Positions 10,033 through 61,290 are shown, numbered from the stretch's first letter. The stretch is DNA of 64,000 nucleotides from Bacillota bacterium (GCA_051750645.1 JBNJJW010000023.1:7921-71920), one strand, 5' to 3'. The notes: a model not told the origin generated them from the letters alone. Numbers and translations: made by a program.

Positions 10033-10123
10033 GTCGTTATCCTGCCCGTTAGCGTGGAAAAGGCAGCCGTTCGGGTCGGCTGCCTCAGTGTCTTTATTAA
10101 GCTATCATACCTGGTTAATTGAA
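10033..10123. repeat. Paired recombination-like sites flanking a terminator-like hairpin
   Basis: GTTATCCTGCCCGTTAGCG - AGGCAGCCG..CGGCTGCCT - TTAAGCTATCATACCTGGTTAATTGAA; 28 bp identical to the 60943 element. Confidence 0.8.
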
Positions 10124-10132
10124 TAATGCAGC

Positions 10133-10606
10133 TTACAACTTAAATGTCCAAAACTCACGGTCTTCCAGTACTAGGTCATAAGGTGTTTTTATGTCCATCC
10201 AGCGAATGTTTCGTTTTTTTGAAATTGCTAACTCTTCTTCACCACTTAAACATGTAAGATACTCTACAATACCACTAGTTTGAATGGCTTCTTCAAGATA
10301 AGTGTACAGTATATTTAAACACTTCTCTTCTGTCGCATTTCCCTTTATTCGATATTTCAATGGGATAGCATTCGAATACGCTGCAACTTGATATTGTAAT
10401 GTGAAGTGTGGACTATACGAAGACTTTCTTTTCAATTTGTTATCATAATTATTTTCAAAATATAATTCTGTAGCATCCAGTTCAGTTTTAAAAACATTTG
10501 GTTTCTCAGGAGACAAGGGATTTAACCCGAACGAACCTTTAGGCAATTTTACTGGTGAAGCAATATAAATATATTGAGTCAAGAAAATCCCCCCTCTGTA
10601 ATGCAC
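10133..10606 (-). CDS. Hypothetical protein bracketed by paired-site elements
   Basis: AT-rich 157-aa ORF with GGGGGA RBS; repeat elements at 10033-10123 and 10630-10720. Confidence 0.75.
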   Translation of the reverse strand: MHYRGGIFLTQYIYIASPVKLPKGSFGLNPLSPEKPNVFKTELDATELYFENNYDNKLKRKSSYSPHFTLQYQVAAYSNAIPLKYRIKGNATEEKCLNILYTYLEEAIQTSGIVEYLTCLSGEEELAISKKRNIRWMDIKTPYDLVLEDREFWTFKL

Positions 10607-10629
10607 GCCTTACTTCCCATTAACCTTTG

Positions 10630-10720
10630 GCAACTATCCTGCCATTCGTAACGAGGCCGCCATTCAATCCGCAGTGGCTTCGTTGTTTATTTTATCGCAC
10701 TATCGTACCCGTTAAAATAA
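10630..10720. repeat. Paired recombination-like sites with central hairpin (degenerate)
   Basis: CAACTATCCTGCCATTCG - GCC.C..GTGGC hairpin - CACTATCGTACCCGTTAAAATAA. Confidence 0.7.
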
Positions 10721-10803
10721 CATGGTTTGTCAAACGAAAGCAATTTCCTAATTATGAATAATAATAAATTTCCATGGAAATTATATCTGCGAGGTGATTT
10801 CAG

Positions 10804-11235
10804 TTGAAAAAGCTTGTAAAGTATTCACTCCCCATTGCATTTCTTGTTCTGGCTTCGGTAACTCAAGCTTTACCAACCCATGCCGAACCAAAAGAAAACA
10901 TAGTTTATAAAACAACATATGCAACAACCGAAAACATTTTTTTAGATACCATACATCCTGAGTTAAATAAATTCGTTCTGAACAAGTATGGTTCTCTAGT
11001 GCCTTGGGCTGATTCCAACATTGTAGAAATAAAACGTCTTGTAAGTCCCACTAAATTTACTTATCAAGTAAAAATAATGTTTAAGGTCTTCGGAGAAGGG
11101 GGAAAAGATTGGGGTATTGACCAGATCACTCTAAATTATGATTCCCATTATCATAATAAAGAATTAAAGGACCCTTCATTAAAACCTGAAATTGAATTGG
11201 TTGAATACCAGCATGTTATACCAATTCCAAAATAA
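10804..11235 (+). CDS. Exported hypothetical protein (DUF3888-like)
   Basis: Signal peptide ending HA|EP; resemblance to DUF3888 is from memory only. Confidence 0.7.
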   Translation: MKKLVKYSLPIAFLVLASVTQALPTHAEPKENIVYKTTYATTENIFLDTIHPELNKFVLNKYGSLVPWADSNIVEIKRLVSPTKFTYQVKIMFKVFGEGGKDWGIDQITLNYDSHYHNKELKDPSLKPEIELVEYQHVIPIPK

Positions 11236-11547
11236 TCAGTAAAGGATACGTTTAAAAACGTGTCCTTTTATTTTGTTATTTCCCTACTTCCCTACTATCT
11301 TTCATTGCTGTTAATGTTGTTTATTGAGTTATGACTTGATACCACCACCATAATAAAAAAAATGGAATACAACAGGCAATCAATATTAATATAACAAGAG
11401 CCTTATTTTTTACTTGTTTCATGTATATCCTCCGTTAAACAATTTGGCCTTCTTATTAGACGAATCACTAAACTTTTTTCCATTTAGTTGAACGCAAAAA
11501 AAGTTCCCTCTCTACATACGGTTAGAAGCCTGATTAAGTTATTTAAG

Positions 11548-11997
11548 TTATAACTTTTGTAATGCTTGATCGATTAAATTGCCAAACCTACTCTGTCGGT
11601 TATCAATATCATCTGAATGAGTCCAATAAATAACCATCACATTCTTTCGCTCATAAATGTCGGCCACCGCCATTTTGTATTTTTCCTTCTGTTTAATAAA
11701 TTCCAAATGTCCATCTTTACGTGCATCAACTGAATCAAAGATGTAAATAAAAATTTGCTCTAACGGACGAATTTCGTGGTTTACTACCACATAGCGGTTT
11801 GCTTTAGTTTTTTTTAGAATCCAATCATCTGTAATTTGCTTCGGATTCATTTCCATGCCTGTGGATCGAAAAGAATCTTCAACTTGACCTATATTTAACA
11901 AAAAAGGATCAACTGGCTTGTCAGTTTTTGTACACCCTGCAAGAAGTAAAAGTATAATAACTAATAACAACTCGAATTTTATTTTCATATTAACCAT
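11548..11997 (-). CDS. Lipoprotein of unknown function
   Basis: Lipobox LLAGC. Confidence 0.8.
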   Translation of the reverse strand: MVNMKIKFELLLVIILLLLAGCTKTDKPVDPFLLNIGQVEDSFRSTGMEMNPKQITDDWILKKTKANRYVVVNHEIRPLEQIFIYIFDSVDARKDGHLEFIKQKEKYKMAVADIYERKNVMVIYWTHSDDIDNRQSRFGNLIDQALQKL

Positions 11998-12070
11998 ATC
12001 CTATATGTTATTTTATTTGACATTGATTTTAACATCCCCTTTCCCTTAATACTAATTCCACATTTTGTTA

Positions 12071-12104
12071 TTAAGTTATTCTGCTAGTTAGCTGAACGGG
12101 CAGG
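12071..12104. repeat. Solo recombination-like site
   Basis: TTAAGTTA-TTCTGCTAGT-TAGCTGAA followed by CGGGCAGG. Confidence 0.5.
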
Positions 12105-12438
12105 CTTTAGTATGGTAACATCCGTTATCAAAATGTGCGTGTTTCCGGTCGAATTGATCCCCATAAAATACCTGAACCATCGTTCTACCGTTCAAAGTCA
12201 AAACATCCTCTTGATACAAACCGGTATGATTATTTGTGATCATCATCATCACGGAATTATTACGAGCTTAAGCTTTATAAATACCTTTAAATTCTTTTCC
12301 ACAATAAACAAAACCGATTAAACCGAATGAAATATTGAAATACGAAAAAGAACCAACAGAGTAATCTGGAGGCTCTTTTATTTGTCTACTTTGCTGCGCC
12401 TTTTCGTCCTTACTCCTGAAATAAAAAACCTTACTATT

Positions 12439-12849
12439 TTATTGAAGAGGATTGTTTTGATATGTCATTGCGGCAGCCTGCGCCTGTTGAATTTTTTGTT
12501 GTGCCTCTTGAACGTCTTGTTGTTCTTGCTTTACCTGTTGTTGTGCCTGTAATACTTGTTGAATTTCCGTTTGCAGCTGTTGTTTTGCTTGCAATAATTG
12601 TTGATTTTCTAATTGTAACTGTTGATGTGCCTTTTGAACCTCTTGTTGTGCTTGTAGTAATTGTTGATTTTCCTGAGAATTAGCAGCTTGGATATTTTGT
12701 AACAGTTGCTGTGCTTGTTGCAAAGTTTGTTGAGCCTGTTGCATTTGCTGTTGATTTCCGCTATTTTGCACTTGCTGCACAGCTTGTTGAGCCTGTTGGA
12801 CAGACTGAAAAGCTTCTTGTAATAACTGCTGTTGATCTTGTTTTACCAT
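12439..12849 (-). CDS. Glutamine-rich low-complexity/coiled-coil protein
   Basis: Start MVKQDQQQ after a GGAGG RBS; heptad-like QQAQQ/QLQ repeats. Confidence 0.75.
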   Translation of the reverse strand: MVKQDQQQLLQEAFQSVQQAQQAVQQVQNSGNQQQMQQAQQTLQQAQQLLQNIQAANSQENQQLLQAQQEVQKAHQQLQLENQQLLQAKQQLQTEIQQVLQAQQQVKQEQQDVQEAQQKIQQAQAAAMTYQNNPLQ

Positions 12850-13259
12850 ACAAAAGCCTCCAATAATTATTATTTTCGCACTTAAATGCACCAATAATTA
12901 TCGTGCTCATAATAATATTTTTTATGCTTTTGATTAATTGAATTTGGGCAAACTACGAACTCTTAGTATATTAGCGATCAATCTACACCCAAGTGAGATG
13001 TTTCGTGCAGGGGCTAAGTTATGAACATTTTTATGGGCTACGCGGGCGCTGCCATAAGGGTAGTTCCTGCAGACAACACTCCAGCTGCTATTAACGCGGC
13101 TGCCGCCGCTTTCTTCCACTTTTTCAATAGAATTGCCTCCCTAGCACTGATCGGGTACTATAACTTTTCAACATTCATGAAGGCTGTGCATGATTGGACT
13201 TGAACCCGCACCTTCTTCCGCTATAGGCATATATCTATAAGATCAGGTGATGATCATGA

Positions 13260-14567
13260 TTGTTAACCAACAGTGGGAGGCTATATATGATACAGAACCA
13301 TAATGGGCAGATTCTCCGTCAGCAGTCCTCTTATCGACAACCGTTTCACAATCTGCAGAATCCCGTTTCAAAAGAAGTTAATCCAATAGGACGCTATCAA
13401 ATGATCTTCCATTGGAACCGATTAGATTGGAATTTTCCTGACCTAAGGATGAAGCAGGAATTTGAAGCCAATCAATATTGGAAAAAGGCGATGCCTGCCG
13501 GAGTAAAAGTAGACCAACAAGGCAATTATTACGTTTCAGTGCCCCGCTGGGCTTATGGCATCCCTTCCACTATGAATCGGATCATTATCAAAGACGGAAA
13601 ACCGCTCTTGGAGGCTTTCCCGAGTTGGGAATGGAATCAAGCGGGGAATGTCAATGTCCTTCAATCCGTTCTTGGTTATGAAATCGATGAATGTAACCGG
13701 ATGTGGCTGCTGGATCAAGGGAAGATCGCCTACACACCTTCTCCGGTAGGGTCGCAGAAGCTGGTCGTCTGGGATTTGAATACCAATCGGATGATCGACT
13801 CTATAATCATCCCAAATGAGATTGCGCCGTACGGGACATCTTTTTTAAATGATGTGGTCGTGGACAATAAGAACGGTTTTGTCTATATTACCGATTCCGG
13901 TTCCGGTTGGCCGGATCACCCGCTTAACGGCGGAATCATTGTGTACAACATGAGGACGAGAACGCTCAGACGGGTGCTCGATCGCCATTACAGTACACAG
14001 GATTTTCCCGATTTTCATTTTCAAATTGACTATAAGCCGGTATTCAAGGATAAACCTCTTCGAATCGGAGCTGACGGCATCGCCTTATCCGCGGATCGTT
14101 CCACTTTGTATTACTGTCAGGTCACAGGGCGAAATCTATATGCACTTGATACTTCGCTGCTACGAAACTTTAATACACCCTTAGAAGAAATCCGAAAGGC
14201 AGTAAGGGCCATTGGCAGCAAGCGCACGACCACCGATGGGATGCACGCGGATAATAAAGGAAATGTCTTCTACACCATGCTGGAAGGAAAGGGAATAGGC
14301 ATCTATACACCTTCCAGCCATACATTCCATGATTTTGTGTCTGACGATCGAATGCTATGGGTCGACGGGGTCGCTTTTGATCAAAAGGGCTCCATCCTTT
14401 TTAACAGCAACCGGCTTCACGAGATGTTTGGGGGCTACGAGATCGATTGGAGCTATCCCTATAACCTCATCATTTGGAAAGCATTTGTTGGTCATGATGT
14501 AAAGTCGTATTTGTATACGATTGAAAAAAGTGAGCCAGACTTTTACCCTGCACAGACAACTGTATGA
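13260..14567 (+). CDS. Major royal jelly/Yellow-family (L-dopachrome tautomerase-related) beta-propeller protein
   Basis: YVSVPRW, SVLGYEID..NRMWLLDQG, FLNDVVVD, ADGIALS, LYY motifs. Confidence 0.88.
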   Translation: MLTNSGRLYMIQNHNGQILRQQSSYRQPFHNLQNPVSKEVNPIGRYQMIFHWNRLDWNFPDLRMKQEFEANQYWKKAMPAGVKVDQQGNYYVSVPRWAYGIPSTMNRIIIKDGKPLLEAFPSWEWNQAGNVNVLQSVLGYEIDECNRMWLLDQGKIAYTPSPVGSQKLVVWDLNTNRMIDSIIIPNEIAPYGTSFLNDVVVDNKNGFVYITDSGSGWPDHPLNGGIIVYNMRTRTLRRVLDRHYSTQDFPDFHFQIDYKPVFKDKPLRIGADGIALSADRSTLYYCQVTGRNLYALDTSLLRNFNTPLEEIRKAVRAIGSKRTTTDGMHADNKGNVFYTMLEGKGIGIYTPSSHTFHDFVSDDRMLWVDGVAFDQKGSILFNSNRLHEMFGGYEIDWSYPYNLIIWKAFVGHDVKSYLYTIEKSEPDFYPAQTTV

Positions 14568-14620
14568 ATCACCATTATTTGTAGTGCGGTTCACCGCGCT
14601 GTCTGTAACGTAAAGTTTTG

Positions 14621-14658
14621 AAGAAAGACCATCCTGTGCAAAGGATGGTCTTTTCTTT
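14621..14658 (+). terminator. Rho-independent terminator
   Basis: AAGACCATCCT-gtgca-AAGGATGGTCTT followed by a T-run. Confidence 0.75.
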
Positions 14659-14678
14659 GAAGCAAAATGTAAATAACT

Positions 14679-14723
14679 CTAAACTATCGTACCCGTTAAC
14701 ATCCATGCCGCACAAAGCGCGGC
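14679..14723. repeat. Recombination-like site plus small hairpin
   Basis: CTAAACTA-TCGTACCCGT-TAAC; core identical to 10700-10714; GCCGC..GCGGC hairpin follows. Confidence 0.7.
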
Positions 14724-14796
14724 ACCACAGAGAATGAAAGTTAATCCGTTCTTTCATAGTAGTTTAGTGCATACATTAAGTTTTACTTTGACTTTC

Positions 14797-15681
14797 TTAT
14801 TGAATTTCGAAATCTGCAGCCAACTTCACACTTATATCCGTCATGAATCCATTGAAACTCTTCACCAGTCGGTACCTTCCTGGTTCAAGCTTTTGTGGTA
14901 AAACAACCTTTTCCACGTAAGACTCACTAGGTCTTGCCTGCATTGCGATGGTAACTACAGATCTGTCATCAGGAACTAGGGTCCATCCCTCAGGTTCTTC
15001 TCGGTAGATCGCATATCCATATCCAAAATACAGGTTGGTCGGACCTGCATTATACAGGGTCAATTCGGTTTGATCAGATCCTACTACCGGCGGTTTAACG
15101 GAAAGGCGCGCGTTAAGTTCATGTGCTGGCACAAAAAGTGGAGCAAGAAACGTGTCCTCTACAACGTTCTCAGCTGATAGAATTTCTATGCTGAACAGAT
15201 AATTTGTATCGGGTTGTTCGGGCATCTGGTAAGTGAAATCTAGTTGTCTTTTATCGTTTTTACGATTGTCCACTATATACTCCTTCAAAAGCTCCACCCG
15301 ATTCCCCTCCTTGTCTCGACTTGTGATTTGAAAACGGACAGAGCGCCTTTCTGGAACCTTACTGAATCCGGTTCCTACATCAGTTCCTGCCTGTCTTACT
15401 GGGGATGGGGTGGAAGTCAGGATGTTGAAGCCATTTTCTCCCTCGAACCATTTTCCAGTCCTGGGACCGTACTCCTTAGCAGATGCAAGTGCGCGATCTT
15501 GCGAGAGCATTGAAGAGACTTTTAACGTGTTTGGGTCGCCTACAGTATCTGTTAATAGAACAACAGTTGGATCGATCGCTTGTGAGGAGGTGTTCTCTAA
15601 ATCTGAACTTGTTTTATTTCCGCATGCAGATAAAATAAAACCGAATATGATAATCAAAAGGATTCTTCGCAAAACAATCAC
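14797..15681 (-). CDS. Lipoprotein with C-terminal immunoglobulin-like domain
   Basis: Lipobox LSAC; C-terminal LYNAGPTNLYFG...LEPGRYRLVK Ig-like pattern. Confidence 0.75.
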   Translation of the reverse strand: MIVLRRILLIIIFGFILSACGNKTSSDLENTSSQAIDPTVVLLTDTVGDPNTLKVSSMLSQDRALASAKEYGPRTGKWFEGENGFNILTSTPSPVRQAGTDVGTGFSKVPERRSVRFQITSRDKEGNRVELLKEYIVDNRKNDKRQLDFTYQMPEQPDTNYLFSIEILSAENVVEDTFLAPLFVPAHELNARLSVKPPVVGSDQTELTLYNAGPTNLYFGYGYAIYREEPEGWTLVPDDRSVVTIAMQARPSESYVEKVVLPQKLEPGRYRLVKSFNGFMTDISVKLAADFEIQ

Positions 15682-16096
15682 CTCCTGTGGACAAGAATGT
15701 ATATCCTTTGATGGGGGTGCTATTATTAATGAGATAATAATCGTCTTCTCCTGACAAGTTAGCCGGAAGCTGCAATTTGATTTGATGTTTATTGTCTAAT
15801 GACATAAATCTTATCTCAATCATGACAAAAATCAGTTATCATTCGCGAATTTGACAAAAAAGTGTTGTCATTAAAATTAACTTATGATAACACTTTTCGT
15901 CATTTTTCTTCTGATATGACAACTGAAATTGAATTCGTGTTGTTTACCAGGCAGATCCCAACCAATGGAATTCAAGCGCTTACGGCCTATTCGGATAACA
16001 TCAGCCAATTTTTCAGATGGTTCATGACTAAATGAGCCGGCCACATCGCTGATTCTCGCTCTCACCGGCTCGCCAAGCTCGCCTGCGCATCTCACT

Positions 16097-17966: not shown

Positions 17967-18014
17967 TCCAGCATGTCATAGGATTCATTAGTAATATTGT
18001 AACAGATTTTCGCC

Positions 18015-33024: not shown

Positions 33025-33348
33025 GACAAGGTTCCTCTACATGCCGATCCCTTTACACCTGAGGGTTCTTCTGCGCTGCACTCCAAGATCTTCGCTCGTT
33101 CCATGGTCTTCGCCGGGGCAGTCGTGGCTCGGCTCCCTCTTATCCCCTTCGGGTTCACTTTCACGATGCGGTAGGATTCATTTTCATTTACGGCTTGCAG
33201 ATTTGCTTCACCGCGCAGAGCGCGACTTTTCACAGGGCTTCAACCGCCGGATTTCGCCGACGTCTGCCTGCTAGCTACGGGGCGGCTTGGTCCCTAACCC
33301 GACTGAACTTGCATCAGTAAGTTGTGCCTAGCTTGGCTAGGCGCGCAC
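33025..33348 (-). mobile_element. Group II intron 5' portion (domain I), truncated
   Basis: Begins GTGCG at 33348 on the minus strand; homologous to 2265-2560; candidate EBS1 loop GCC-ACGACUGCCCC-GGC. Confidence 0.78.
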
Positions 33349-33395
33349 TGCCCGTTAGCGGGGAAAAGGCAGCCGATGATATTGGCTGCCTCTTG
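33349..33395. repeat. Half of a paired-site element interrupted by the intron
   Basis: TGCCCGTTAGCGGGGAAAAGGCAGCCG..GGCTGCC matches 10043 and 60943; the CTATCC part is replaced by intron sequence. Confidence 0.8.
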
Positions 33396-33795: not shown

Positions 33796-34086
33796 TCTCT
33801 GATGTCTAATAACACAAACATACCCTTAATTTTGACACAAACGTTGTCGCTCCAGCTGGTATCCACCCCGCCAACATTCGTTCTTCGGACTGGATATTTC
33901 TCATGCCATGAATTCGACTTGGGCCACGCTGGTTATGGGCTTTCCGACTTATATCAACTAAAGCAATCGAGCAACTGTTGGCCGGGATTCGAGGGAGTAC
34001 AGGCAAAAAAAGAATGACACCCTTTTCCATTTAATGTGGAAAGAATGTCACTCTTTTTGCCGTGGTGCCGTTAACACCTATTCATT

Positions 34087-35244
34087 TTAATACACATCAC
34101 GTTGATAACGTCCTTGAGCTTGTATATCATTGAGATAAGCTTCCGCTGCTTCGCGGCTCATCGCACCTTCTTTTTCAATAACTTCGATAAGCGCGTTGTG
34201 GACATCTTTCGCCATATATTGCTTATCTCCGCAAACATAGAAGCAAGCTCCGTTTTCCAGCCATTCAAACAATTCCTTGCTGTTTTCAAGCATTTTATGC
34301 TGCACATAAACTTTTTGTGCCGTATCACGGGAGAACGCAGTTTCTATTCTTGTTAAGACCCCATCTTTTTGATATTGTTCCAACTCGTTCTGATAAAGGA
34401 AATCCGATGCCGCATGCTGGTCTCCAAAAAATAGCCATGCTCTGCCCGTTGCTTTAGTTACCGCACGTTCCTGGATAAAGGAACGGAACGGTGCAATGCC
34501 TGTCCCCGGACCAACCATAATAATATCTGTATCTTGAGACGCCGGCAAATGGAAGTGTTTATTAGGTTGAATAAATACGGGAAGCGTGTCTCCTTCTTTA
34601 AGACGTTCGGCAACTAAAACCGAACAAACGCCTTTACGTTCACGTCCGTGAGCCTTGTAGCGCATAGCACCGATGGTTAGATGCACTTCCTCGGGATTAG
34701 CGGCAATGCTGCTTGCAATTGAATAGAGACGCGGCGTCAATTTTCTTAAAAGAGACACCATTTCTTGGGCAGAAGCGTTCCATGGCCCGAAATCGCGCAG
34801 CAAATCAAGCAAGTCACGCCCGTAGATATATTCTTTCAGTTGGTTTGCATTTTCATTTAATAAAAGCTTGCTCAACTCTTCATTCTCGGTAAGTTCCACC
34901 GCTTGCTGTAAAATCTTTTTCGATAGCAGTGTAATTTCAAAGTAGGTTGTCAGCGCTTCTTTTAACGGAAGTGTATCGCCTTCCTGATTAATTGTTACTA
35001 ACGTTTCTTCGTCCCATTTCATTTCCTCAAACAGAGAAGCTACCAGTTCCGGATCATTATTCGGGATAATACCAAGAGCATCTCCTGGGACGTAGGAAAG
35101 GCTTGATCCTTTTAACGATAACTCAAGATGTCTTGTTTCTTTATTGGAGTCAGCTCCATTTAAATTTACATTTTTAATAACCTTCGCGTGAAATGGATTT
35201 TTTCTTGAGAATGTTGTTGCCGACTGATTTTCTGTAACTAGCAT
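34087..35244 (-). CDS. CysJ/P450-reductase-like FAD/NADPH oxidoreductase lacking the flavodoxin domain
   Basis: RLYSIASS, MVGPGTGIAPFRSF, FYVCGD, YQRDVY; starts at SRKNPF with no FMN domain. Confidence 0.88.
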   Translation of the reverse strand: MLVTENQSATTFSRKNPFHAKVIKNVNLNGADSNKETRHLELSLKGSSLSYVPGDALGIIPNNDPELVASLFEEMKWDEETLVTINQEGDTLPLKEALTTYFEITLLSKKILQQAVELTENEELSKLLLNENANQLKEYIYGRDLLDLLRDFGPWNASAQEMVSLLRKLTPRLYSIASSIAANPEEVHLTIGAMRYKAHGRERKGVCSVLVAERLKEGDTLPVFIQPNKHFHLPASQDTDIIMVGPGTGIAPFRSFIQERAVTKATGRAWLFFGDQHAASDFLYQNELEQYQKDGVLTRIETAFSRDTAQKVYVQHKMLENSKELFEWLENGACFYVCGDKQYMAKDVHNALIEVIEKEGAMSREAAEAYLNDIQAQGRYQRDVY

Positions 35245-35292
35245 ATTTCTCCCCCCAAAATACTAGGATAAAAAGTCTGATGCCGGCGACAA

Positions 35293-35638
<346 letters not shown>

Positions 35639-35685
35639 TCTAGTTACCTGATGATGAAAGAGTTTAATACCACTGTTCCGTATAG

Positions 35686-36477
35686 TTAACTCTTGGTTTG
35701 AGCCAGCATTTTATCAACGGTTTTGCTCATCTGATTTAAAATAAACTGAGGTGCAACACGACTCATGAACTTCAGCGCACTGCTTTGGCCCGGCAGGATC
35801 TCAAAGCGATCCTTTTCCAAACCCTTGATTACGTACCTAACCATCTTACCGGCATCCATTGGCTTTACGCCTTTGATCTCGTCGCCATCAAAAGCTTCAA
35901 GTAAAGGGGTCTGAACAGCTGGAGGCGCCAATTCAAACACTTTAATATTAGTATATTTTAGCTGCATTCGCAGTGATTGTGTAAATGAATGAATACCGGC
36001 TTTCGTCGCACAATATACTGGCGATACCGGATAAGGAACAAATGCAAGTCCGGATGAGACATTCATAATCGCAGCGGACTTCTTAGCCTTTAAATGCGAT
36101 AAGAATTGTTTCACCATACGGATCGAACCGCTGAGGTTAATTTCAATCTCGCTATTGATATCCTCTAAGTCAACCTCTTTGGTATGAAGATTTAATGCAC
36201 GCATAACCCCAGCGTTATTGATCAGAAAATTCAGTTCTGGAAATTGACTGATTACTTTTTCAAAAAGGTCGGAAATGGCCTTTGGATCGCTTACATCACA
36301 CTGAAATGTGTGAACGTTTGGCAGTTTCTTTTTGGCTAGATCCAGTTTGGACTGATCCCGCCCGGTAATAATTACGGTGTTCCCAAGCTGAAGGAGCTGC
36401 GTGGCAAGCTCGAATCCAATCCCGGATGTTCCACCCGTTATAAGAATTGTGTTGGAATCCATTTTCATAAAAATCAA
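35686..36477 (-). CDS. Short-chain dehydrogenase/reductase (DltE-like)
   Basis: TGGTSGIG, NNAG, YCATK. Confidence 0.93.
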   Translation of the reverse strand: MIFMKMDSNTILITGGTSGIGFELATQLLQLGNTVIITGRDQSKLDLAKKKLPNVHTFQCDVSDPKAISDLFEKVISQFPELNFLINNAGVMRALNLHTKEVDLEDINSEIEINLSGSIRMVKQFLSHLKAKKSAAIMNVSSGLAFVPYPVSPVYCATKAGIHSFTQSLRMQLKYTNIKVFELAPPAVQTPLLEAFDGDEIKGVKPMDAGKMVRYVIKGLEKDRFEILPGQSSALKFMSRVAPQFILNQMSKTVDKMLAQTKS

Positions 36478-36531
36478 TCCTTTCTCTATAAATGATTTAT
36501 ATAGCGGCTTTGCATGCTTTACACACTCTTA

Positions 36532-37875
36532 TTAGGCAAAGCATTTCTCAAAGCTCATTAACAATTTGGGGTTCCCTTTGATCCGCAGTTTTCTTGTCAA
36601 CAATGCCGCAGCCGCATTTTTTTCCTTCGCCACGATCTTAAGCCACGTTTTGCTATCCACCGTAATCCGAATATCCGGCTTGCCGTGAAAACCGTCCCTA
36701 ATCTGGAGCTTATTGTCACGAATGTCGATTGTCGTTTGTCTCGTTTCATCTCCGGTGAATGTAAAATGATAGGTGCTGTTTAAACCCGTTGCCTGTTTCG
36801 GCTGGAATGCATGAGGCATCAGGGTGATCAAAAGGCGGATCGTATTCGGCCTGAGTCCATTCCCGACGCGTTTTACCGTTTTATGGGGAAAACGTTTCGC
36901 GACATACGCTTCCGCATCGGAGCCAGGGGTTACATACACCGTCTCCTCTTTGGCCTGCAACGGCTTTAATACATCATTCATGAACCTTTTACGGTCTTTC
37001 AGAAACGGCCCGATCACATCATCGCCCGCCGGACAAACCGATAAGCAATAAGCCGCTTTGTAGTTAGCCCCGAAACTCAAACTTTGCCACCAGGAAGTCG
37101 TTTCGGTTAGCGGTACTTCATTCCGGTACTCTTTGACGTTCTTGCTGTCCACGACCGTTTCCACAAAGTCGCTGAAACCGCCCATAAACTCACGATAATT
37201 GTGCGTAGCGCATGAAGAAAAATTAAATTGTCCGTCCGCACCGATCGCGCCCACAGGGCAGGCAGATACGCAAAGCTTGCATTCCAAACACGGGTTGTAG
37301 TCAATCGGCCGGTCTTCCTTGTTGACCCGGGCATCCATCATAACGGCGCCAAGCAGAATGAAGTTTCCGAATTTCGGATGAATCACGTTGCGATGGATGC
37401 CCATATGGCCTAACCCTGCAGCAACGGCAACAGGCTTGAGCGAAACGACCCAGGTCTTGCCGGGAAACTTATCCATCTCCATCGGGAAACCCATTGCTGC
37501 ATTTAAAGCCCGTATCCCTCGTGCTTCCAATGCAGACACGATGTGATGGGCTGTCTCCGCTACCTTATCGCCGGTATGATGAAATTCAATATTGGCAAGG
37601 GATCGCGCTGGTGTGCGGATCGGTTCTCGATTCATTCTGGCAACGAAACTGATCATCGTCTTAGCATGCGGAAATGCGGACAGAATGTCATCACGCTGAT
37701 CATCCAATTCGGAGCGTTCAATGGATATAACCCCGACATCGTCAGCTCCGGCCTCAAGACACAATTCACGTATCCACTCATAATCAACCGTCTCGTTGTT
37801 AAGAGTGGCGGATTGCGCAGAGGATTCGTAGTAACGCACAACTGTGGGATGTTTTTTCATATCGGCCACTTTCAT
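36532..37875 (-). CDS. QueG/reductive-dehalogenase-like Fe-S protein fused to an SCP2 sterol-carrier domain
   Basis: AVAAGLG..G...HPKFG, CLECKLCVSACP, YCLSVCP; C-terminal SCP2 pattern (YHFTFTG...PDIRITVD..TW...KLRIKGN). Confidence 0.8.
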   Translation of the reverse strand: MKVADMKKHPTVVRYYESSAQSATLNNETVDYEWIRELCLEAGADDVGVISIERSELDDQRDDILSAFPHAKTMISFVARMNREPIRTPARSLANIEFHHTGDKVAETAHHIVSALEARGIRALNAAMGFPMEMDKFPGKTWVVSLKPVAVAAGLGHMGIHRNVIHPKFGNFILLGAVMMDARVNKEDRPIDYNPCLECKLCVSACPVGAIGADGQFNFSSCATHNYREFMGGFSDFVETVVDSKNVKEYRNEVPLTETTSWWQSLSFGANYKAAYCLSVCPAGDDVIGPFLKDRKRFMNDVLKPLQAKEETVYVTPGSDAEAYVAKRFPHKTVKRVGNGLRPNTIRLLITLMPHAFQPKQATGLNSTYHFTFTGDETRQTTIDIRDNKLQIRDGFHGKPDIRITVDSKTWLKIVAKEKNAAAALLTRKLRIKGNPKLLMSFEKCFA

Positions 37876-37922
37876 CTATCCTTTCTCATTAAGTGTATAT
37901 ACACCTTTTCGGTGAAAAAAAA

Positions 37923-38405
37923 TTAATCTCGCTTGTTAAGCTTAACGATATCAGACAAATGACCAAGCAAACCTTTATAAGGGTCATCGCCCATATAGTC
38001 TCGAATACGGATTTGTGCCTGTTCCCATAACGGCAGCGCACGCTTAAGAAGGTCCCGGCCGTCGGGTGTCAGAGCAATAAATCGTTTCCTGCGATCCTCC
38101 CCTTCCGTGATCGACACCCATCCCTGTCTCTCAAGCGGCTTGAGATCCCGTGGCAATGTGGTCCTATCCATCAGAAGTATTTCGGAGAGAGTTGTGACGG
38201 TGACAGACCCGGCCTGTTCAAGTGCCATAAGGACAGACAATTGGGTTGCCCGAAGCCCGACTGGTCTTAAATATTCATCATATAAACTGGTAATGAACCG
38301 GGACGCTTTTCTTAAATTCAAGCAAGCGCACTCTGCTGTATAATCGGTCGCCCCTGAAAAATCTGAAGTTGAATTATTTTCTCTCATAAATATGAGTATA
38401 TACAC
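37923..38405 (-). CDS. MarR-family regulator
   Basis: CACLNLRKASR, MDRTTL.R.LKPL...GEDRR. Confidence 0.92.
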   Translation of the reverse strand: MYILIFMRENNSTSDFSGATDYTAECACLNLRKASRFITSLYDEYLRPVGLRATQLSVLMALEQAGSVTVTTLSEILLMDRTTLPRDLKPLERQGWVSITEGEDRRKRFIALTPDGRDLLKRALPLWEQAQIRIRDYMGDDPYKGLLGHLSDIVKLNKRD

Positions 38406-38437
38406 ATATTATATCGATGTCAATCTTTATAATCATC

Positions 38438-38656
38438 TTAAATATGGCTTACCTCTGCTAAAAAAACCATATCGAACTTGCCTTCTTCCGTTGCTGTTAA
38501 ACCATCTGTCCCGGATGCTCTGCCTAAGCCTAGATCAACTCTTCCGGGATGAAGAGCTTCAAGCAGGGTAAAGTTTTCTACCACTTTCAATGGACTATGA
38601 TTGGGCAGCATAATTCCTCCAGAACCAGCACGATTGGATATCAGTTGGTCAAACAA
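38438..38656 (-). pseudogene. Luciferase-like (LLM) monooxygenase internal fragment
   Basis: [36 protein letters not shown]; no N- or C-terminus. Confidence 0.75.
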
Positions 38657-38738: not shown

Positions 38739-38833
38739 TTGCGTTATCCTGCCCGTTATCGTAATGAAGCAGCCGATCATTGTGTTCGGCTGCTTCCGTG
38801 TTTTTATTGGACTATCGTACCCGTTTAGCTTAA
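38739..38833. repeat. Complete paired-site element with hairpin
   Basis: GCGTTATCCTGCCCGTTATCG - GAAGCAGCCG..CGGCTGCTTC - TTGGACTATCGTACCCGTTTAGCTTAA. Confidence 0.85.
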
Positions 38834-52340: not shown

Positions 52341-52351
52341 AGGCGGCTAAT

Positions 52352-54298: not shown

Positions 54299-54630
54299 TC
54301 ACCTACTGGATATTTAGTTTCCATTATGAATGCCCTTAATTATGGAAAATTACTCTGTTTAATATACTCACATTTCCAATTGATGCAAGCAAAAAGAGGA
54401 GCTGCCGAAGCGTGCTCCTCCACTATCGTATCCATTTGCGTTCAATTCGGAGTTAAGCTAATCCAGAACGGCATAGTCAAAACTTTAATTACAATTATTA
54501 ATCGATTTCGTATTAGCTTACAAATCACTCCGTAACGGGCATCCGCATACAATACACCAGCAACGCAGATAGACGTTCGCCCTCATTATCATGTGTACAT
54601 GGTTACAACCAGTATAAGGAGTGAATCGAT

Positions 54631-55065: not shown

Positions 55066-55202
55066 CGGCTTCGCTTCATAACGGAAATAAACAAGACCAG
55101 CTCATTTATCAAGCTCGATAAACCGCTCCACAAAGGCCATCCATTGTTGGATGGCCTTTTTGAAGATATAGAATTTACATCCTGAAAATTCGTTTAGCAA
55201 AA

Positions 55203-55592: not shown

Positions 55593-56100
55593 ATTTTACA
55601 GCTGATCGTACAGTTGGAACATAAGTGAATTCTCTGTTCCTTAATACGATACGGCGATAAAAATTACTTTATGGTGTCATGTTCATATATTTTGGTAGGC
55701 CGTCCCCGTTCGAAGTTATCCAAACCTATTTCCCTGAATCCATATTTCTCATTTGATATTTAACGCCTCCATATCAATTCATTTCTTCGTAAGCCTTTGG
55801 TTTTTATTCCAAAGGTTTTAACGATCAGCTTTTGAAAATAAGAATTAGACTAAGACTGTAGTTCCAATATCCTCAGGCGGTAACGCATTCATTCATTCCA
55901 AAGTTATTACTCAGCTTGATTACATACACTAGGTCCCCAATTGTCTCCTTAGTCTGTTTCGTTAGAACATGAGGAAAAGTTGTATCGTCGATAGAGGAAA
56001 TTACCGGAACTAACCTGCCAACATCCATTCCAAGATTTTATTCGTTATTCCGTATCTTTTTTAATTAATTATGTGTTTATATAGTGTTAGATTAAGCTAA

Positions 56101-57069
56101 ATGAGGGGAGTGTTTTTTTTGGATGAAGATATTTTAGAATCATTAGGAAGTCCATTGCGTGATTTACAAAAAAAATTTGGTTTATTGATCGAACCTCATC
56201 GTCCGGCACTATGGCGTTATTGCAGGATGGTGACCGGTTCTCCATGGGACGCTGAGGATCTTGTTCAAGAAACACTTATGAGAGCATATGCTACACTACC
56301 GAAACTCTGGCAGCCAGTAATCCCGAAAGCATTCTTATTTCGTATTGCCACTAATATATGGTTAAATCAGTGCCGGGGAGCAAGGCATGTATTGGATTAT
56401 TCCTTCGAGGAACATGATTTAAGAGAATTCGATCAGGATCCTTTTGAAGTCAGAGAAGCTATCGAAACCCTAGTCAGGTTCCTGCCGCCCCGGCAGATGG
56501 TTGTCGTATTACTTTGCGAAGTATTCGATTTTAAAGCCCATGAAACAGCGGATATGGTAGGAACTACGGAGGGAGCGATTAAAGCACTTTTGCACAGAGC
56601 ACGAAAAAAGCTTTATACGTTAAACCCCCGGATTGATTATAATGAGCCAGTAAAACTACCGCCGTTCGATAAAACCCAAGCAGCTTTAGTTGAAGCCTTT
56701 TTGGAGGCATTTAATCGACGAGATCCGGATGCAATCGCGAGGTTAATGGATAACCATGTAGTGAATGATATTGTCCATATTTCCGAGGAGCAGGGTAAAG
56801 AAATTGTGCGTAAGCATTCGCTTGAAGGTTGGGCAAAAGATCCAATGCCTATGTATGCTTACCTTAAAGTCATATGGAATAAACCGATTGTCGTGGTTAT
56901 GGCCAAGACCGAAACTGGAGAGGCGCTTTATAATCTAATCGGTCTTGAAATCGAAGAAGGCACCATTATTAAAGAGAAGAACTATTATTTCTGCCAAGAC
57001 TTGTTGATGACGGTAGCAAAAGAACTAAACGTAGCGGTCCATCTTAACGGGTATATGTATGAGGATTGA
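56101..57069 (+). CDS. ECF sigma factor with C-terminal SnoaL-like extension
   Basis: DAEDLVQET, AFLFRIATN, LPPRQ..V.LL, F..AFNRRD extension. Confidence 0.9.
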   Translation: MRGVFFLDEDILESLGSPLRDLQKKFGLLIEPHRPALWRYCRMVTGSPWDAEDLVQETLMRAYATLPKLWQPVIPKAFLFRIATNIWLNQCRGARHVLDYSFEEHDLREFDQDPFEVREAIETLVRFLPPRQMVVVLLCEVFDFKAHETADMVGTTEGAIKALLHRARKKLYTLNPRIDYNEPVKLPPFDKTQAALVEAFLEAFNRRDPDAIARLMDNHVVNDIVHISEEQGKEIVRKHSLEGWAKDPMPMYAYLKVIWNKPIVVVMAKTETGEALYNLIGLEIEEGTIIKEKNYYFCQDLLMTVAKELNVAVHLNGYMYED

Positions 57070-57155
57070 GTAGGGAGAGAACTATCTAGGAGTCGGCATG
57101 CTTGTAAAAACAGGTCACTTTATGGAAGCATCACTAGGTGACCTGTTTTCCACGT

Positions 57156-58883
57156 TCAGAGGACTGACAATAATTCTTTAAAAGAGCCATTGGCATTACG
57201 AAGTTGGGTTGCATTTCCTTCTTCAACGATCCGTCCGTTTTCCACGACGAGAATCTGATCTGCGTCCAAAATCCTTTCCAGTTTATGCGTGATCACAACC
57301 ACTTTCCGTGTTTTCGAAACTTCTGCGATGGCCTTATGAATTAGCCCTTCCGATGTCGAATCCAGAGCGGATGTCGCTTCATCTAGTACTAGTATCTTTG
57401 AATCACGGACTAAGGCCCGCGCTAACGCAATTCTCTGCTTTTGTCCGCCTGATAAATTGCCTCCGCCGTCAACTATCTTTGTGGAATAACCGTCTTTCAG
57501 TTCGGTGATGAACGGGTGCGCGTTAGCCTCAATCGCCGCCCGTATAATGTCCTCTCGACTGGCATGCAAATTGCCCAACCGAATATTTTCTTCGATTGTC
57601 CCTTCAAAGAGAAAAACCTTTTGCGGTACGTAAGATATCAACTCAAGCCATTGATATCCGTAATAATGTTCCCCATTGATCAGGATTTGTCCATCTGTTG
57701 GAACGTGTACGCCCATTATCAATTTTGCAATCGTTGATTTTCCACTGCCGCTCTTGCCAACAATTGCAGTGAAGCCGGTCCCTTCTAGATGGAAATTAAG
57801 CTTTTCAAGCACTAATCGATCTTCATCAGGAAATTGAAAACTAACATGCTCGAAAGAGAGAGCGAACGGCGCCTGCTTCCCGTGTGACGGCAGGCCTGGC
57901 TCATTGCCTTGCTTCTCGGATTGACCGAACAATTCAGACAATCTCCTGAAGCCAGCCAAAGAGGCTTGTAGTTGTGCTATCGTTCCGCCAATCTGCGAGA
58001 AAGACGACGAAACACTTATGCTTAATTGTACCAATGCCGTCAAAGTCCCGAGGCCAATCATGCCGTTTGATAGCATAAACGCTCCTACGGCAAATGCCCC
58101 GCCGAAGTTAAAGAAGGCAATCAGGTAGTTTACACTTTCCAACTTGGCTACCCTGTCGCCACGCGTGTTCTCCAGTTGCACTAATCCATCATTTACACGA
58201 TTGAATCTCTTAGTAATGACGGCATGGATATTCAGCATTTTAATCACCGTAATACCAGCGAGCACGTCCAACAGTCGGGCCGTTCTAACTCCTAGTCTTC
58301 TTTGAATGATATCGCTGACGGAGCGAAGTGGTTTAGAAAATAGGCTGACCAAGATAGCGGAGAAAAACCCTACACCTACTAAAAACAAGCCGATTTTCCA
58401 ATCGAGATACATCATGGAAAATATTGAACCAAGACTAATGATAATGTGGAACAGAATATTTTTAATTTGTGAATCGAATATCGACTTAATCGTACGAACG
58501 TCATTATTAAAGAGGGAGACCAGATACCCGCTATGATTGCTCTCAAAAAAGCTCAGCGGCAAACGATTAATCTTTTTAAATACAGCCAGCATAATAGCGT
58601 TCATTATTTTTTTCACAGCCATTTGATACACATAGTAGAAAATCGGTGAAGCGGTCACCAATAGAACGATTGGTATCAGAAAGAATAGAGCGCTTTTAAT
58701 CAACAAATCACCATTCAGCTTAGTGGACGCATCGAATAAATATTTCCAAGCGAAAGCTTGCATTACGATCAAGCTTGCGTGCACAGCACAATCACCGACC
58801 ACCCCGATACCATAAGCGAATAGTTGAGGTCTGATGAACTTCCATAGATGATTTTTCGGTTTAATAAATACCACCTCTTCCAT
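57156..58883 (-). CDS. ABC exporter, fused permease/ATPase (subunit 2)
   Basis: GKSGSGKST, LSGGQKQRIALAR, LDEATSALD. Confidence 0.95.
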   Translation of the reverse strand: MEEVVFIKPKNHLWKFIRPQLFAYGIGVVGDCAVHASLIVMQAFAWKYLFDASTKLNGDLLIKSALFFLIPIVLLVTASPIFYYVYQMAVKKIMNAIMLAVFKKINRLPLSFFESNHSGYLVSLFNNDVRTIKSIFDSQIKNILFHIIISLGSIFSMMYLDWKIGLFLVGVGFFSAILVSLFSKPLRSVSDIIQRRLGVRTARLLDVLAGITVIKMLNIHAVITKRFNRVNDGLVQLENTRGDRVAKLESVNYLIAFFNFGGAFAVGAFMLSNGMIGLGTLTALVQLSISVSSSFSQIGGTIAQLQASLAGFRRLSELFGQSEKQGNEPGLPSHGKQAPFALSFEHVSFQFPDEDRLVLEKLNFHLEGTGFTAIVGKSGSGKSTIAKLIMGVHVPTDGQILINGEHYYGYQWLELISYVPQKVFLFEGTIEENIRLGNLHASREDIIRAAIEANAHPFITELKDGYSTKIVDGGGNLSGGQKQRIALARALVRDSKILVLDEATSALDSTSEGLIHKAIAEVSKTRKVVVITHKLERILDADQILVVENGRIVEEGNATQLRNANGSFKELLSVL

Positions 58884-60602
58884 TCAGGTGAAGGAACCAT
58901 ATAACTGGCTGTACAATCCGCAGTTATTTAGTAATTGTTCATGTGTCCCTCGCGATACAATGGTGCCTTTATCCATAACCACAATTTCGTCCGCCTTAGT
59001 GATTGTAGGCAGTCTGTGGGCCACGACTATGATCGTACGATGCCCCTTCAACTCAGCGATAGAATTTTGAAAATACTCTTCAGAAATCTTATCCAGCGCC
59101 GAAGTAGGTTCATCCATGATTACGATTTGTGAATCCTTTATCAGCGCCCGGGCCAAGCCTAATCGTTGCTTTTGCCCGCCGGACAGGTTTCCGCCATTCT
59201 CAGATACCTTTGTGTCAAACCCGGATTTGAGTTCTCTGATAAATTCGGTGGCATATGCAGCCTCAGCCGCAGCCGCAATGTCCGTTTTGCCTGAACGCAT
59301 TTGGCCATATTGAATATTTTTGGAAATCGTTACAGGAAATAAATGCGTATCCTGCGATACGTACGAGATCTGCTCCCTGATCAATGGATAGCTTTCGCGG
59401 TTGAATTCCCGACCAAGAACACTCACCGTCCCTTCAATAGGTTCGTAAAGACCGCACATCAATTTGGCAAGAGTACTTTTTCCGCAGCCGCTCGGCCCTA
59501 CTATTGCAACCATTTTGTTCTTCTCGATTTGTAACTGAAAATCTTGAAGCACCGGCTTCCCGTCATCATACTGAAACGTCACGCGCTCTAAAGCAACGGC
59601 GCAGGAATCAGGTAGGTCGTAAGTGCCTGGAGACTGGTGGCTCCACTCTTCCGGAACATCGAGCAGTGCAAATACTCGGCCGAATGCCGCTGATGCCTGT
59701 CTTAGGCTAGAAAGCAGCCACGGTATCGTTACAGGGGGACGGACCAAGTATTTCAGTAAATAAATGAAGACCAGCAGCTGACCCGGGGTTAGTTCTTGAC
59801 GAAGGGTTAAATACCCGCCGTACAAAATGGTTATGGCATAGGGAACAGCTTGTAAAACCATTCCTATACCCGGTAAAATGGAGCGGCGCCTTTCAATTTT
59901 TAGGTATAAATCGAGCGATTCCGTTAAACGCTCTCGAAACGCTTCGGTCATATGACTATTGAGGTTGTAGGCATGGATAACCTCGATCCCGTCAACCGTT
60001 TGCTTGACCGATGCGCTAATCTCACCCATATTCTGTTGGTATCTCTCCGTTGTAGTGCCGATATTTTTACTTATATAATTCGCTGCATACATGAACGTTG
60101 GAATAACGATCACGTTAACCAGGAGCATCTGCCAGTTGACGAATAACAGATAGACAAATGCCGCGACAAATACAAGTGGTTGATATAGCAAGTTGCTCAG
60201 ACCGTTTTTCATGAAGTCTTCCACTAGTCCAACGTCATTTGACAGCTTCGAAGCAATTTCCCCGGATTTTTGTTTTTCCGTATAGACTAAAGGTAGCTTT
60301 GAAATTTTTCCCACTACAACCTTCCTTATGTCTCTAATTGTGGAGGTTGTAAGACGAGTGGCCCCATAGCTGGTGATATAGGTTGTCATGCCCCCAATAA
60401 GTACTGCTCCGACAAGCGCAATAACAATACTGAAAAGCGAGCTTTTATCCAATGCTAGGGCACCATCAATCATCCGATTCGTCAATTCGCCAACTATTAT
60501 CTCAATTAGCACAGAAAGAACCAACGAAATCACAGTGAGGAGAAGCCACTTATAATTCGGTCTAATATAGACGAAAATTGCCTTCAAAAACTTTTTATTC
60601 AC
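58884..60602 (-). CDS. ABC exporter, fused permease/ATPase (subunit 1)
   Basis: GPSGCGKST, LSGGQKQR, MDEPTSALD. Confidence 0.95.
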   Translation of the reverse strand: MNKKFLKAIFVYIRPNYKWLLLTVISLVLSVLIEIIVGELTNRMIDGALALDKSSLFSIVIALVGAVLIGGMTTYITSYGATRLTTSTIRDIRKVVVGKISKLPLVYTEKQKSGEIASKLSNDVGLVEDFMKNGLSNLLYQPLVFVAAFVYLLFVNWQMLLVNVIVIPTFMYAANYISKNIGTTTERYQQNMGEISASVKQTVDGIEVIHAYNLNSHMTEAFRERLTESLDLYLKIERRRSILPGIGMVLQAVPYAITILYGGYLTLRQELTPGQLLVFIYLLKYLVRPPVTIPWLLSSLRQASAAFGRVFALLDVPEEWSHQSPGTYDLPDSCAVALERVTFQYDDGKPVLQDFQLQIEKNKMVAIVGPSGCGKSTLAKLMCGLYEPIEGTVSVLGREFNRESYPLIREQISYVSQDTHLFPVTISKNIQYGQMRSGKTDIAAAAEAAYATEFIRELKSGFDTKVSENGGNLSGGQKQRLGLARALIKDSQIVIMDEPTSALDKISEEYFQNSIAELKGHRTIIVVAHRLPTITKADEIVVMDKGTIVSRGTHEQLLNNCGLYSQLYGSFT

Positions 60603-60933
60603 CAGGATATATTCCCTCCCCTAATGTGTGAGCCCCAAAATGGTGGCTTACTCTTTTCGAGATCGCGGTCAACGGACATCCTTTTTGGCATGTGGGAGGC
60701 TAGGCTTTTTTCTTGCGTGAACTTCAATAACAGGTATAACTCCTTTTCTTATCCGTCAGTTCTAAGTTATCAACCATTTGAAACACCTCCAAATAATTTG
60801 TGAATTTCAAGATAACAGTATCATGAATTTATTATAACAGCAACAATAAAATTATATTTAATACTGTATTATAAATGTTTTTTGTCACTGTTACAGGTTA
60901 ATAAAAACAATATAACAGACTTTATAGACATAA

Positions 60934-61028
60934 TAAAACTATCTGCCCGTTAGCGTGGAAAAGGCAGCCGATTTATGCCGGCTGCCTCATTGTGGTCTGT
61001 TTTAAGTTAAAGTTTTCCGTTACTTCAA
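60934..61028. repeat. Complete paired-site element with hairpin
   Basis: AACTATCTGCCCGTTAGCGTGGAAAAGGCAGCCG..CGGCTGCCT..TTAAGTTAAAGTTTTCCGTTACTTCAA. Confidence 0.82.
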
Positions 61029-61264
61029 TAACGATGAACACTTCTTTTATAACTCTGACCTAATTAACTGAATATATCTTTCGGTATCAAAAATTCTGTG
61101 AGTTAGAAACTTTCCGTTCAGTATTATATTAAACGTACCATAAGGGGAAGGTGCTTCTTGTGCTTGTTTTGAAGTTTCAATTTTTCTGTTGATGTAATGT
61201 GGAATGTATCTATCCAATCTTTAAGTTCTCTCGATAAATCTGTTTCACCAATTTGCAAAGACTA

Positions 61265-61290
61265 CCTAACTCTCGTTCCCGTTATAAAAG
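61265..61290. repeat. Solo recombination-like site just after the oxidoreductase stop
   Basis: CCTAACTC-TCGTTCCCGT-TATAAAAG. Confidence 0.55.

Follow-up and report, generated by a model that had tools for sequence, protein, structure and literature searches.

Integrons are the textbook system of gene capture and stockpiling. In the Vibrio superintegron, long one-directional arrays hold mostly single-gene cassettes of ~1 kb, each bounded by a site for a tyrosine recombinase. The complete-genome survey of Cury et al. found no complete integron in Firmicutes, for a reason left unexplained (PMC4889954). Two further described systems come close in other respects. The pdif modules of Acinetobacter plasmids are gene modules bounded by 28-bp sites of an 11-6-11 build, which reassort between replicons. 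The closest published analogue that we found is rAID-1 of the Bacteroidales (Ross et al. 2019, 10.1101/471110), in which a XerD-family recombinase accompanies a row of co-directional genes of low guanine-plus-cytosine (GC) content; the repeats between these genes reminded the authors of integrons. Here we analyse a 64,000-nucleotide stretch of DNA from a Bacillota bacterium (GCA_051750645.1, JBNJJW010000023.1:7921-71920; the window), together with the 6.46-Mb draft genome of 145 contigs that carries it. We show that directional arm-core-arm sites form one-directional arrays, that the units bounded by these sites recur, and that the sites are physically linked to a conserved Xer-like recombinase. 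Judging from sequence comparison, we put the probability at roughly 0.75 that these are the recombination sites of a gene-cassette system of the Paenibacillaceae, fewer in other Bacilli families, and most likely run by a dedicated Xer-like tyrosine recombinase of 280 aa. We found no description of such a cassette system in Paenibacillus or Bacilli in openly licensed papers and preprints, and one may exist elsewhere.

A previous inspection of the window, made from its letters alone (the sequence-only reading), had listed eight loci that share a site in one orientation. All eight are present where it had placed them or a few bases off, all on the plus strand, and the system proves far larger in the genome as a whole. 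The weight-matrix scan that it had proposed as a check gives 437 sites (32 columns, 14 bits) compared with 11 in a shuffled genome; this matrix replaced a Hamming-distance scan, which overlooked many decayed sites. In the logo the site has a dif-like 11-6-11 build of 28 bp, with inverted 11-bp arms ATTGAACTATC and GTTAGTTCAAT around a 6-bp core, so that the earlier description of 8-bp arms around a 10-11-bp core had the right object and is better redrawn at its borders. The most typical copy reads ATTGAACTATC-GTACCC-GTTAGTTCAAT, and conservation reaches outward to tt.tt.aaCTATCGTACCCGTTAGc..aa. Because the core is asymmetric, the site has a direction. The cores fall into type A (GTACCC, 164 copies genome-wide; GTATCC, 32) and type B (CTGCCC, 94; CTGCCA, 63). 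The 16-mer CTATCGTACCCGTTAG alone has 72 exact copies in the genome, and 202 at up to two mismatches versus 4 in a shuffle. Within the window, the pattern TAYCBTDCCCGTTA has 6 matches at up to one mismatch where 0.12 are expected, and the genome-trained matrix has 12 at 6 bits or more versus 2.2 on both strands in shuffles, with every one of these matches on the plus strand. Three of the originally listed sites, at 10630 (10634), 33349 and 60934 (60939), carry an indel or truncation and are missed by the ungapped matrix, but are plain by eye. That the sites are unlike integron attC holds up. Whereas attC sites are imperfect palindromes of 57-141 bp with R''/L''...L'/R' boxes (RYYYAAC...GTTRRRY), used as folded single strands, the present site is a 28-bp double-strand-type site, and in the logo and the sequences its GTTAGC/GTTAGT lies outside GTTRRRY and has no inverted RYYYAAC partner.

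Most of the sites, 379 of 437, sit in 47 clusters of at least three sites each, ~297 kb in total. Since many clusters fill small contigs or reach contig ends, the true number of arrays is lower than 47. Within a cluster the strand is nearly uniform (25/1, 23/1, 22/0 and 21/0 in examples; 96-100% on one strand). The median spacing is 987 bp, and the units so delimited are mostly single genes. The expected strand for a cassette gene is the one opposite to the site as given above, and it carries the longest open reading frame (ORF) of 154 among 175 intervals. In gene direction the usual order is B' site (core GGGCAG), gene, A' site (core GGGTAC), hairpin with a T-run, B' site and next gene. The cassette ORFs are mostly unrelated to one another (170 ORFs form 146 sequence clusters) and include GNAT acetyltransferase-type proteins, glyoxalase/bleomycin-resistance proteins, APH-type phosphotransferases, methyltransferases, nucleotidyltransferases, kinases, amidases, UppP and FabK, and the arrays have a GC content of 39.4% versus 46.8% for the genome. 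Integrons likewise hold unrelated cargo of similar type (GNAT, glyoxalase/bleomycin resistance, nucleotidyltransferases) at a GC content under that of the genome, in cassettes shared and reordered between species; the one-directional array of mostly single-gene cassettes whose content and order differ between relatives is found here as well.

Strong hairpins lie downstream of 57% of B sites and upstream of 57% of A sites genome-wide, and ~100-130 sites form B-hairpin-A units of 60-90 bp, located past stop codons, while more than half of the A sites are solitary and without a hairpin. The hairpins vary in sequence from copy to copy with their pairing kept. The A/T runs that flank them on both sides give them the look of bidirectional intrinsic terminators. 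With terminators between most cassettes, a single promoter shared by the whole array is an unlikely source of their expression. In a promoter/terminator consensus scan of one array, promoter-like matches did not rise above expectation (41 versus 51 expected). No Rfam family matched the sites, the hairpin units or a 62-nt element described below, whether in the window at gathering thresholds or in three array loci (L001-L003) at E <= 0.1; the only matches were to group II intron models. The placement of the sites also bears on whether the palindromic arms could be operators of a transcription factor that co-regulates accessory genes without any DNA rearrangement. Inverted arms 6 bp apart and B sites upstream of cassette genes would suit an operator. 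The A sites, however, lie downstream of stop codons, and an asymmetric core in a single orientation has no operator role; since homology breakpoints and cross-species shuffling at the sites would in addition be left unexplained, we regard operators as very improbable.

That site-bounded units move is indicated by where homology ends. Within the genome, we took 99 paralogous matches near arrays (at least 250 bp, at least 85% identity) and compared their ends with displaced control positions. Of the 198 match ends, 36 are no more than 5 bp away from a site versus 1.2% in the control (15-fold), and 45 no more than 20 bp away versus 3.1%. In junction alignments the copies are identical as far as the conserved CCCGTTAG and unrelated past it, at both ends. 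Moreover, two gene units that are 98.5% identical adjoin different hairpin units; because the hairpin units differ beside otherwise identical gene units, they behave as separate modules, in line with the earlier suggestion that the terminator itself is an excisable unit. On contig C47 (12617-13850; L004), a 610-bp cassette lies in tandem duplicate at 99.4% identity, and each of the three borders carries an A site. Such an arrangement would result if a second copy had integrated site-specifically, or from unequal exchange at the sites.

Comparison with a relative, G133, gives a similar picture between species. The window segments 10699-11437 and 13171-14684 recur there on two contigs, at 94.6% (C82) and 96.9% identity (C73), with homology beginning or ending in the sites at 10700 and 14684; segment 10716-11437 diverges at both of its site-bearing ends and has a different context. 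Two adjacent cassettes of contig C48 in the present genome sit on different G133 contigs with all four ends 0-1 bp from sites. Conversely, one G133 array is a mosaic of cassettes located on separate contigs here. When all matches with 85% identity or more are taken together, 8 of their 22 ends are no further than 10 bp from a site versus 4.9% by chance (~7-fold). The shuffling of site-bounded genes that the sequence-only reading had predicted is therefore seen both within the genome and between species. About 15 cassette-sized blocks in G133 are 94-98% identical, and the two longest non-array blocks 79% and 81%. Cassettes at 94-98% over a backbone of ~80%, a figure from two blocks only, point to recent exchange or to a shared cassette pool.

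These breakpoints also weigh on a second alternative, namely that the repeats are intergenic elements resembling repetitive extragenic palindromes and bacterial interspersed mosaic elements (REP/BIME) or miniature inverted-repeat transposable elements (MITEs), spread by transposition or serving termination or mRNA stability, with gene variation arising only from their pile-up in accessory islands. The B-hairpin-A units, short, flanked by T/A runs and placed past stop codons, would fit such elements, as would a lone unit at 38744-38827 that lies away from a synteny break and the 62-nt repeat that travels with the sites. Nevertheless, this alternative appears quite unlikely. The solitary, hairpin-free state of more than half of the A sites and the strictly one-directional arrays speak against it, and breakpoints are not independent of the sites, given the enrichments above, although no transposase search was made. 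In addition, the arm-core-arm build fits the core sites used by tyrosine recombinases, and many species have a recombinase gene linked to the sites.

Indeed, a search of the genome with the Pfam Phage_integrase model returned 12 matches, and five of these belong to one family and all lie in or beside arrays: one intact gene of 280 aa (C57:4587-5429) and four truncated or frameshifted copies. With the models of XerC, XerD and archaeal XerA the intact recombinase reaches ~180 bits, under every one of their cut-offs, and it scores far less with the integron-integrase models (TIGR02249, 81 bits with a cut-off of 265; PRK15417, 52 bits with a cut-off of 435). Its closest solved relatives are XerA (4A8E) and XerD (1A0P), and the match to IntI4 (2A3V) is limited to residues 81-181. 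Whereas IntI is defined by an extra domain of ~35 residues near patch III (PMC4889954), the present enzyme is compact and Xer-like. It is 97% identical to a homologue in Paenibacillus prosopidis (CECT 7506), homologues at 78-98% identity occur in many Paenibacillus, Cohnella and Brevibacillus, and the catalytic R, K, H-x-x-R, H and Y are invariant among them. At five recombinase loci in four complete Paenibacillaceae genomes the gene without exception points the same way as the cassette genes. It is embedded in the array, whether near the head, the middle or the tail, in contrast to the integron platform with its divergent intI, attI and Pc. The recombinase has its own site ~75-90 nt upstream of the start, with an inner arm of GCTA instead of GATA. 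Because the flanks diverge upstream of this site and a site follows the stop codon in two genomes, the recombinase gene looks like a cassette itself.

The association extends well beyond this genome, so that the tyrosine recombinase which had been envisaged near dense arrays is found embedded in them. Other named records supplied 80 recombinase loci with a total length of 1.23 Mb; 72 of them have at least one site and 45 have at least three, with 344 sites in the sense of the recombinase, 13 opposite and 4 in shuffles. By a simple pattern search, 82 of 121 Paenibacillaceae genomes contain the site, and over a sample of 120 such genomes the median number of sites is 9 with the recombinase and 1 without (Mann-Whitney p = 5e-8). 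Homologues at ~50-55% identity occur in many other Bacilli families, and a short right-arm pattern is enriched chiefly in genomes that carry such a distant homologue. Two of three distant loci examined adjoin arrays of related sites with other cores (GCGCCC in G425; GCACCC, plus CTGCCC and GTACCC, in G316), and the third (G373) has no array by the matrix. At the G316 locus (L071, G316:C18:771001-782103), in a different Bacilli family, a 53%-identical recombinase is transcribed away from an array in which 13 related sites separate single-gene cassettes on the minus strand, the first site lying 91 bp upstream. This divergent arrangement is the integron layout, which was not seen at the Paenibacillaceae loci examined. 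As separate observations on recombinases, a XerS-like paralogue of 351 aa (269 bits with a cut-off of 267) directly adjoins an array on C17 (128529-129584; L012:4529-5581) and, from its altered C-terminal motifs (LALRS instead of LGHAS), may be inactive. In Paenibacillus sp. V4I5, a Tn7-like set (TnsA-like protein, large ORF, AAA_22 ATPase) and a reverse transcriptase lie right downstream of the array recombinase (L020:13195-18266).

A linked dedicated recombinase sets these arrays apart from pdif modules, which use the host XerC/XerD, and raises the question of whether the host enzymes could suffice here as well. On this account the sites would be acted on by the host dimer resolvases (CodV/RipX-type XerC/XerD), as proposed for the Acinetobacter pdif modules, and the array recombinase would be a mere passenger. 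The site shares its 11-6-11 build with dif. Four of the five recombinase copies in the present genome are decayed or truncated, and four genomes are rich in sites (G073, 33; G027, 31; G070, 12; G046, 10) without a dedicated recombinase at E <= 1e-60, which means that arrays can persist without it or that another enzyme acts on them. However, the site and the B. subtilis dif agree at only 7 of 28 positions, in keeping with the unlikeness to Bacillus dif that was claimed at the outset, and a search of the draft genome that allowed 6 mismatches gave no dif of the B. subtilis type. Moreover, the dedicated recombinase is tied to sites by orientation and position in 72 of the 80 loci, has its own site, and is conserved at 78-98% across genera, which indicates selection for function, while distant homologues adjoin sites with correspondingly changed cores. 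The tight linkage, the own site and the matching change of core in distant lineages favour the dedicated enzyme, and we consider the host enzymes unlikely to be the main agents. CodV/RipX, named earlier for a recombination assay, thus give way to the dedicated Xer-like enzyme as the probable recombinase, with action of host XerC/XerD being possible especially on arrays without it. The pdif modules differ in other ways too: adjacent pdif sites alternate in orientation, whereas all sites here are direct, and pdif modules occupy small plasmids of a Gram-negative genus, in contrast to the large chromosomal arrays in Bacilli.

A rAID-1 cluster is recognised by a XerD-family recombinase accompanied by two or more low-GC genes in one direction and by intergenic repeats (10.1101/471110), all of which are found here, and also by an identity of more than 44% between its recombinase and B. 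fragilis BF9343_RS08045 (10.1101/471110). The rAID-1 recombinase heads its cluster at the 5' end, whereas ours may stand at the head, in the middle or at the tail, in a different phylum. Likewise, rAID-1 clusters carry immunity genes against contact-dependent toxins and reach ~16 kb and 31 genes, while the present arrays hold general accessory enzymes and amount to ~300 kb with ~430 sites; no immunity family was found among the top Pfam/NCBIfam families of 128 cassette ORFs. The accessible text of the report defines no 11-6-11 site and shows no site-bounded shuffling (10.1101/471110).

In our proposal, a recombinase dimer would bind the arms and cut on either side of the core, where it meets the arms. 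By recombining, two direct sites would release a circle carrying one site, which could re-enter any site in any array, or in another cell. Because identical gene units adjoin different terminator units, there would be two possibilities. A and B sites might recombine together, for instance if one strand were exchanged on the CCC/GTTAG side that they share and replication came next; or the terminator units might travel independently, as small cassettes. The two core types could be compatibility classes, or be bridged by such a single strand exchange. Expression of the recombinase may be restrained. In its leader, AAACCCTCCC pairs with the Shine-Dalgarno region GGGAGGGTTT, and this 11-bp stem is conserved across genera with some compensatory changes (L010:5430-5525 on contig C57, and the same position in eight other genomes). 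The stem probably represses translation of the recombinase and would keep it low. Taken as a whole, we are inclined to believe, with less confidence than in the cassette system as such, that integron-like gene capture arose independently in Bacilli, with a compact Xer-type recombinase, itself cassette-borne and leader-restrained, moving gene and terminator cassettes between direct 28-bp double-strand dif-like sites. Such cassettes would number in the hundreds in some Paenibacillus (~5% of the genome) and pass between species far faster than the backbone diverges.

Several observations weigh against the cassette system. Only 18-36% of homology ends lie on recognised sites; the remaining ends may reflect decayed sites or other processes. 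The correlation between recombinase and sites ignores kinship among genomes, and the four site-rich genomes without the recombinase count here as well. The evidence consists of sequence comparison, and no recombination product (a circle, an empty site in a sister strain, a read-level junction) is among it; conservation of the site itself also keeps the point of crossover from being located exactly. In the window, the expected coincidence of breakpoints with sites holds at 10700 and 14684, nearly at 60939 and 61270, and fails at 38744. At the unit 38744-38827, synteny with relatives (which share 33867-38442) breaks ~300 bp to the left of the site. Homology to G047 over an ABC-transporter block stops at 60921, which is 18 bp short of the conserved 15-mer (60939), and resumes at 61300; at the matching junctions G047 has no recognisable sites, and 6.7 kb of unrelated DNA lies between its ABC-transporter and ADH flanks. 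Neither a clean empty site nor a clean filled one came from the comparisons of the window with G047 and with the relatives sharing 33867-38442.

Weighed against the matrix scan, the shuffled site-bounded genes and the array-embedded recombinase, all of which favour the Gram-positive cassette capture and shuffling first suggested from the window, these points leave the cassette system as the preferred reading. The comparisons support the view that the arrays of this soil Paenibacillus would be a working counterpart of the integron in a group reported to be without integrons. If this is true, a cassette system of comparable size built from Xer and dif fills the integron gap of the Firmicutes, and gene-cassette platforms evolved more than once from Xer recombinases, which bears on the origin of IntI from a Xer ancestor. 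For Paenibacillus of soil and rhizosphere, the arrays would also form a large pool of mobile accessory genes that is easy to detect, that can be catalogued with a simple site model, and that includes families which modify antibiotics elsewhere (APH, GNAT, nucleotidyltransferases, bleomycin-resistance-like proteins, UppP). Furthermore, the recombinase and its 28-bp directional site, with at least two core variants, could give a new orthogonal tool for genome engineering in Gram-positive bacteria.

Within the window, the sites lie past the stops or before the starts of minus-strand genes, and 10.0-15.7 kb forms a small, partly decayed low-GC array of ~6 units. At its left end, a plus-strand type B site (10029-10060, 24.6 bits; 16-mer TTATCCTGCCCGTTAG at 10037-10052) stands ~25 bp upstream of the start of a minus-strand DLH-family gene (9385-10014). 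It is followed by a GC-rich hairpin, GGCAGCCG-TTCGGGT-CGGCTGCC (10062-10084), with T/A runs on either side, which reads as a bidirectional terminator module between B and A sites, and by a degenerate plus-strand type A site, CTATCATACCTGGTTA (10102-10117, 7.5 bits), directly past the stop of a minus-strand cassette ORF (10133-10606, 157 aa, no Pfam match). A second plus-strand unit (10634-10715, 32.8 bits) consists of a degenerate B site (10634-10649), an imperfect hairpin and the type A site CTATCGTACCCGTTAA (10700-10715). The adjoining cassette (10716-11437) holds a DUF3888 secreted protein (10804-11235, plus strand) and a 33-aa membrane ORF (11321-11422, minus strand) and ends in a decayed B-like site, TATCCTCC-GTTAAAC. 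A further B-like site, TTATTCTGCTAGTTAG (12076-12091, plus strand, 20.5 bits), lies between the minus-strand ORFs 11548-11997 and 12439-12894. The cassette-like block 13171-14683 (plus strand), which is the one 96.9% identical to G133:C73, contains an MRJP/NHL-type gene (13260-14567) and is followed by another type A site with CTATCGTACCCGTTAA (14684-14699, plus strand, 25.1 bits).

The remaining sites are more scattered, all on the plus strand. The complete B-hairpin-A unit at 38744-38827 comprises a B site (38744-38759), a hairpin (~38766-38797) and an A site (38812-38827), scores 30.2 and 25.6 bits for its two sites, and recurs as a repeat in relatives. An A-like site absent from the original list, CTATCGTATCCATTTG, lies at 54423-54438 (18.6 bits). 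At 60939-60986, a B site recognised by eye with a one-base deletion, CTATC-TGCCCGTTAG (60939-60953), precedes a hairpin of GGCAGCCG...CGGCTGCC (60963-60986), and a degenerate A-like site, CTCTCGTTCCCGTTAT (61270-61285, 10.1 bits), lies directly past the stop of a minus-strand ADH gene (61301-62284). Two-site units around a GC-rich hairpin, which had been called the complete element, thus occur three or four times: at 10037-10117, where the second site is degenerate, at 10634-10715, at 38744-38827, and as a partial unit at 60939-60986. Around the scattered sites, window 33867-64000 is largely a mosaic of 0.2-4 kb blocks that are 90-97% identical to related species on different contigs, with two sampled backbone blocks at ~80%; it may be an accessory island that extends past the recognisable sites.

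Other elements have used the sites as neighbours or targets. In integrons, group IIC introns insert in attC sites. In parallel, group II introns recognised by Rfam models (D1-D4-4, domain V/VI) are inserted here in B' sites right after the terminator hairpin, at window 33183-33348 (minus strand) and at L002:9453-11365 (minus strand). Their insertion points within the site differ, one lying between CTAACGGGCA and GTGCG and the other between ATTGAAG and TAACGGGCAG. In the window, the plus-strand B site at 33349-33390, with its hairpin at 33368-33390, is cut at ...CTAACGGGCA on the minus strand by the intron, whose 5' end is at 33348 and which matches RF02003 with 72 bits at 33183-33320 (minus strand).

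The ~62-nt element has ~64 copies in the genome (for example L005:7735-7800 and L001:17700-17780), falls into three subfamilies and occurs in several related species. In the window it lies at 14700-14768 on the minus strand and adjoins the site where a minus-strand cassette gene (14797-15681) has its 3' end. The element consists of two hairpins, an ATGRAAG...CTTYCAT hairpin with a covarying pair and then a variable stem, and its G-U pairs favour folding of the gene-sense strand. It is always found where a cassette has its 3' end, adjoining the right arm of a type A or type B site, and starts with the half-arm-like ATTAAGCT or TTGAACTA. Candidate roles are those of a mini-element that targets the sites, of an accessory to the site and of an RNA in the 3'-untranslated region. 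Coding for a peptide (MKERINFH...) was ruled out, as the frame differs among copies after the second hairpin and there is no ribosome-binding site. The targeting of pdif sites by an insertion sequence family (PMC10132070) offers a parallel both to this element and to the introns in B' sites.

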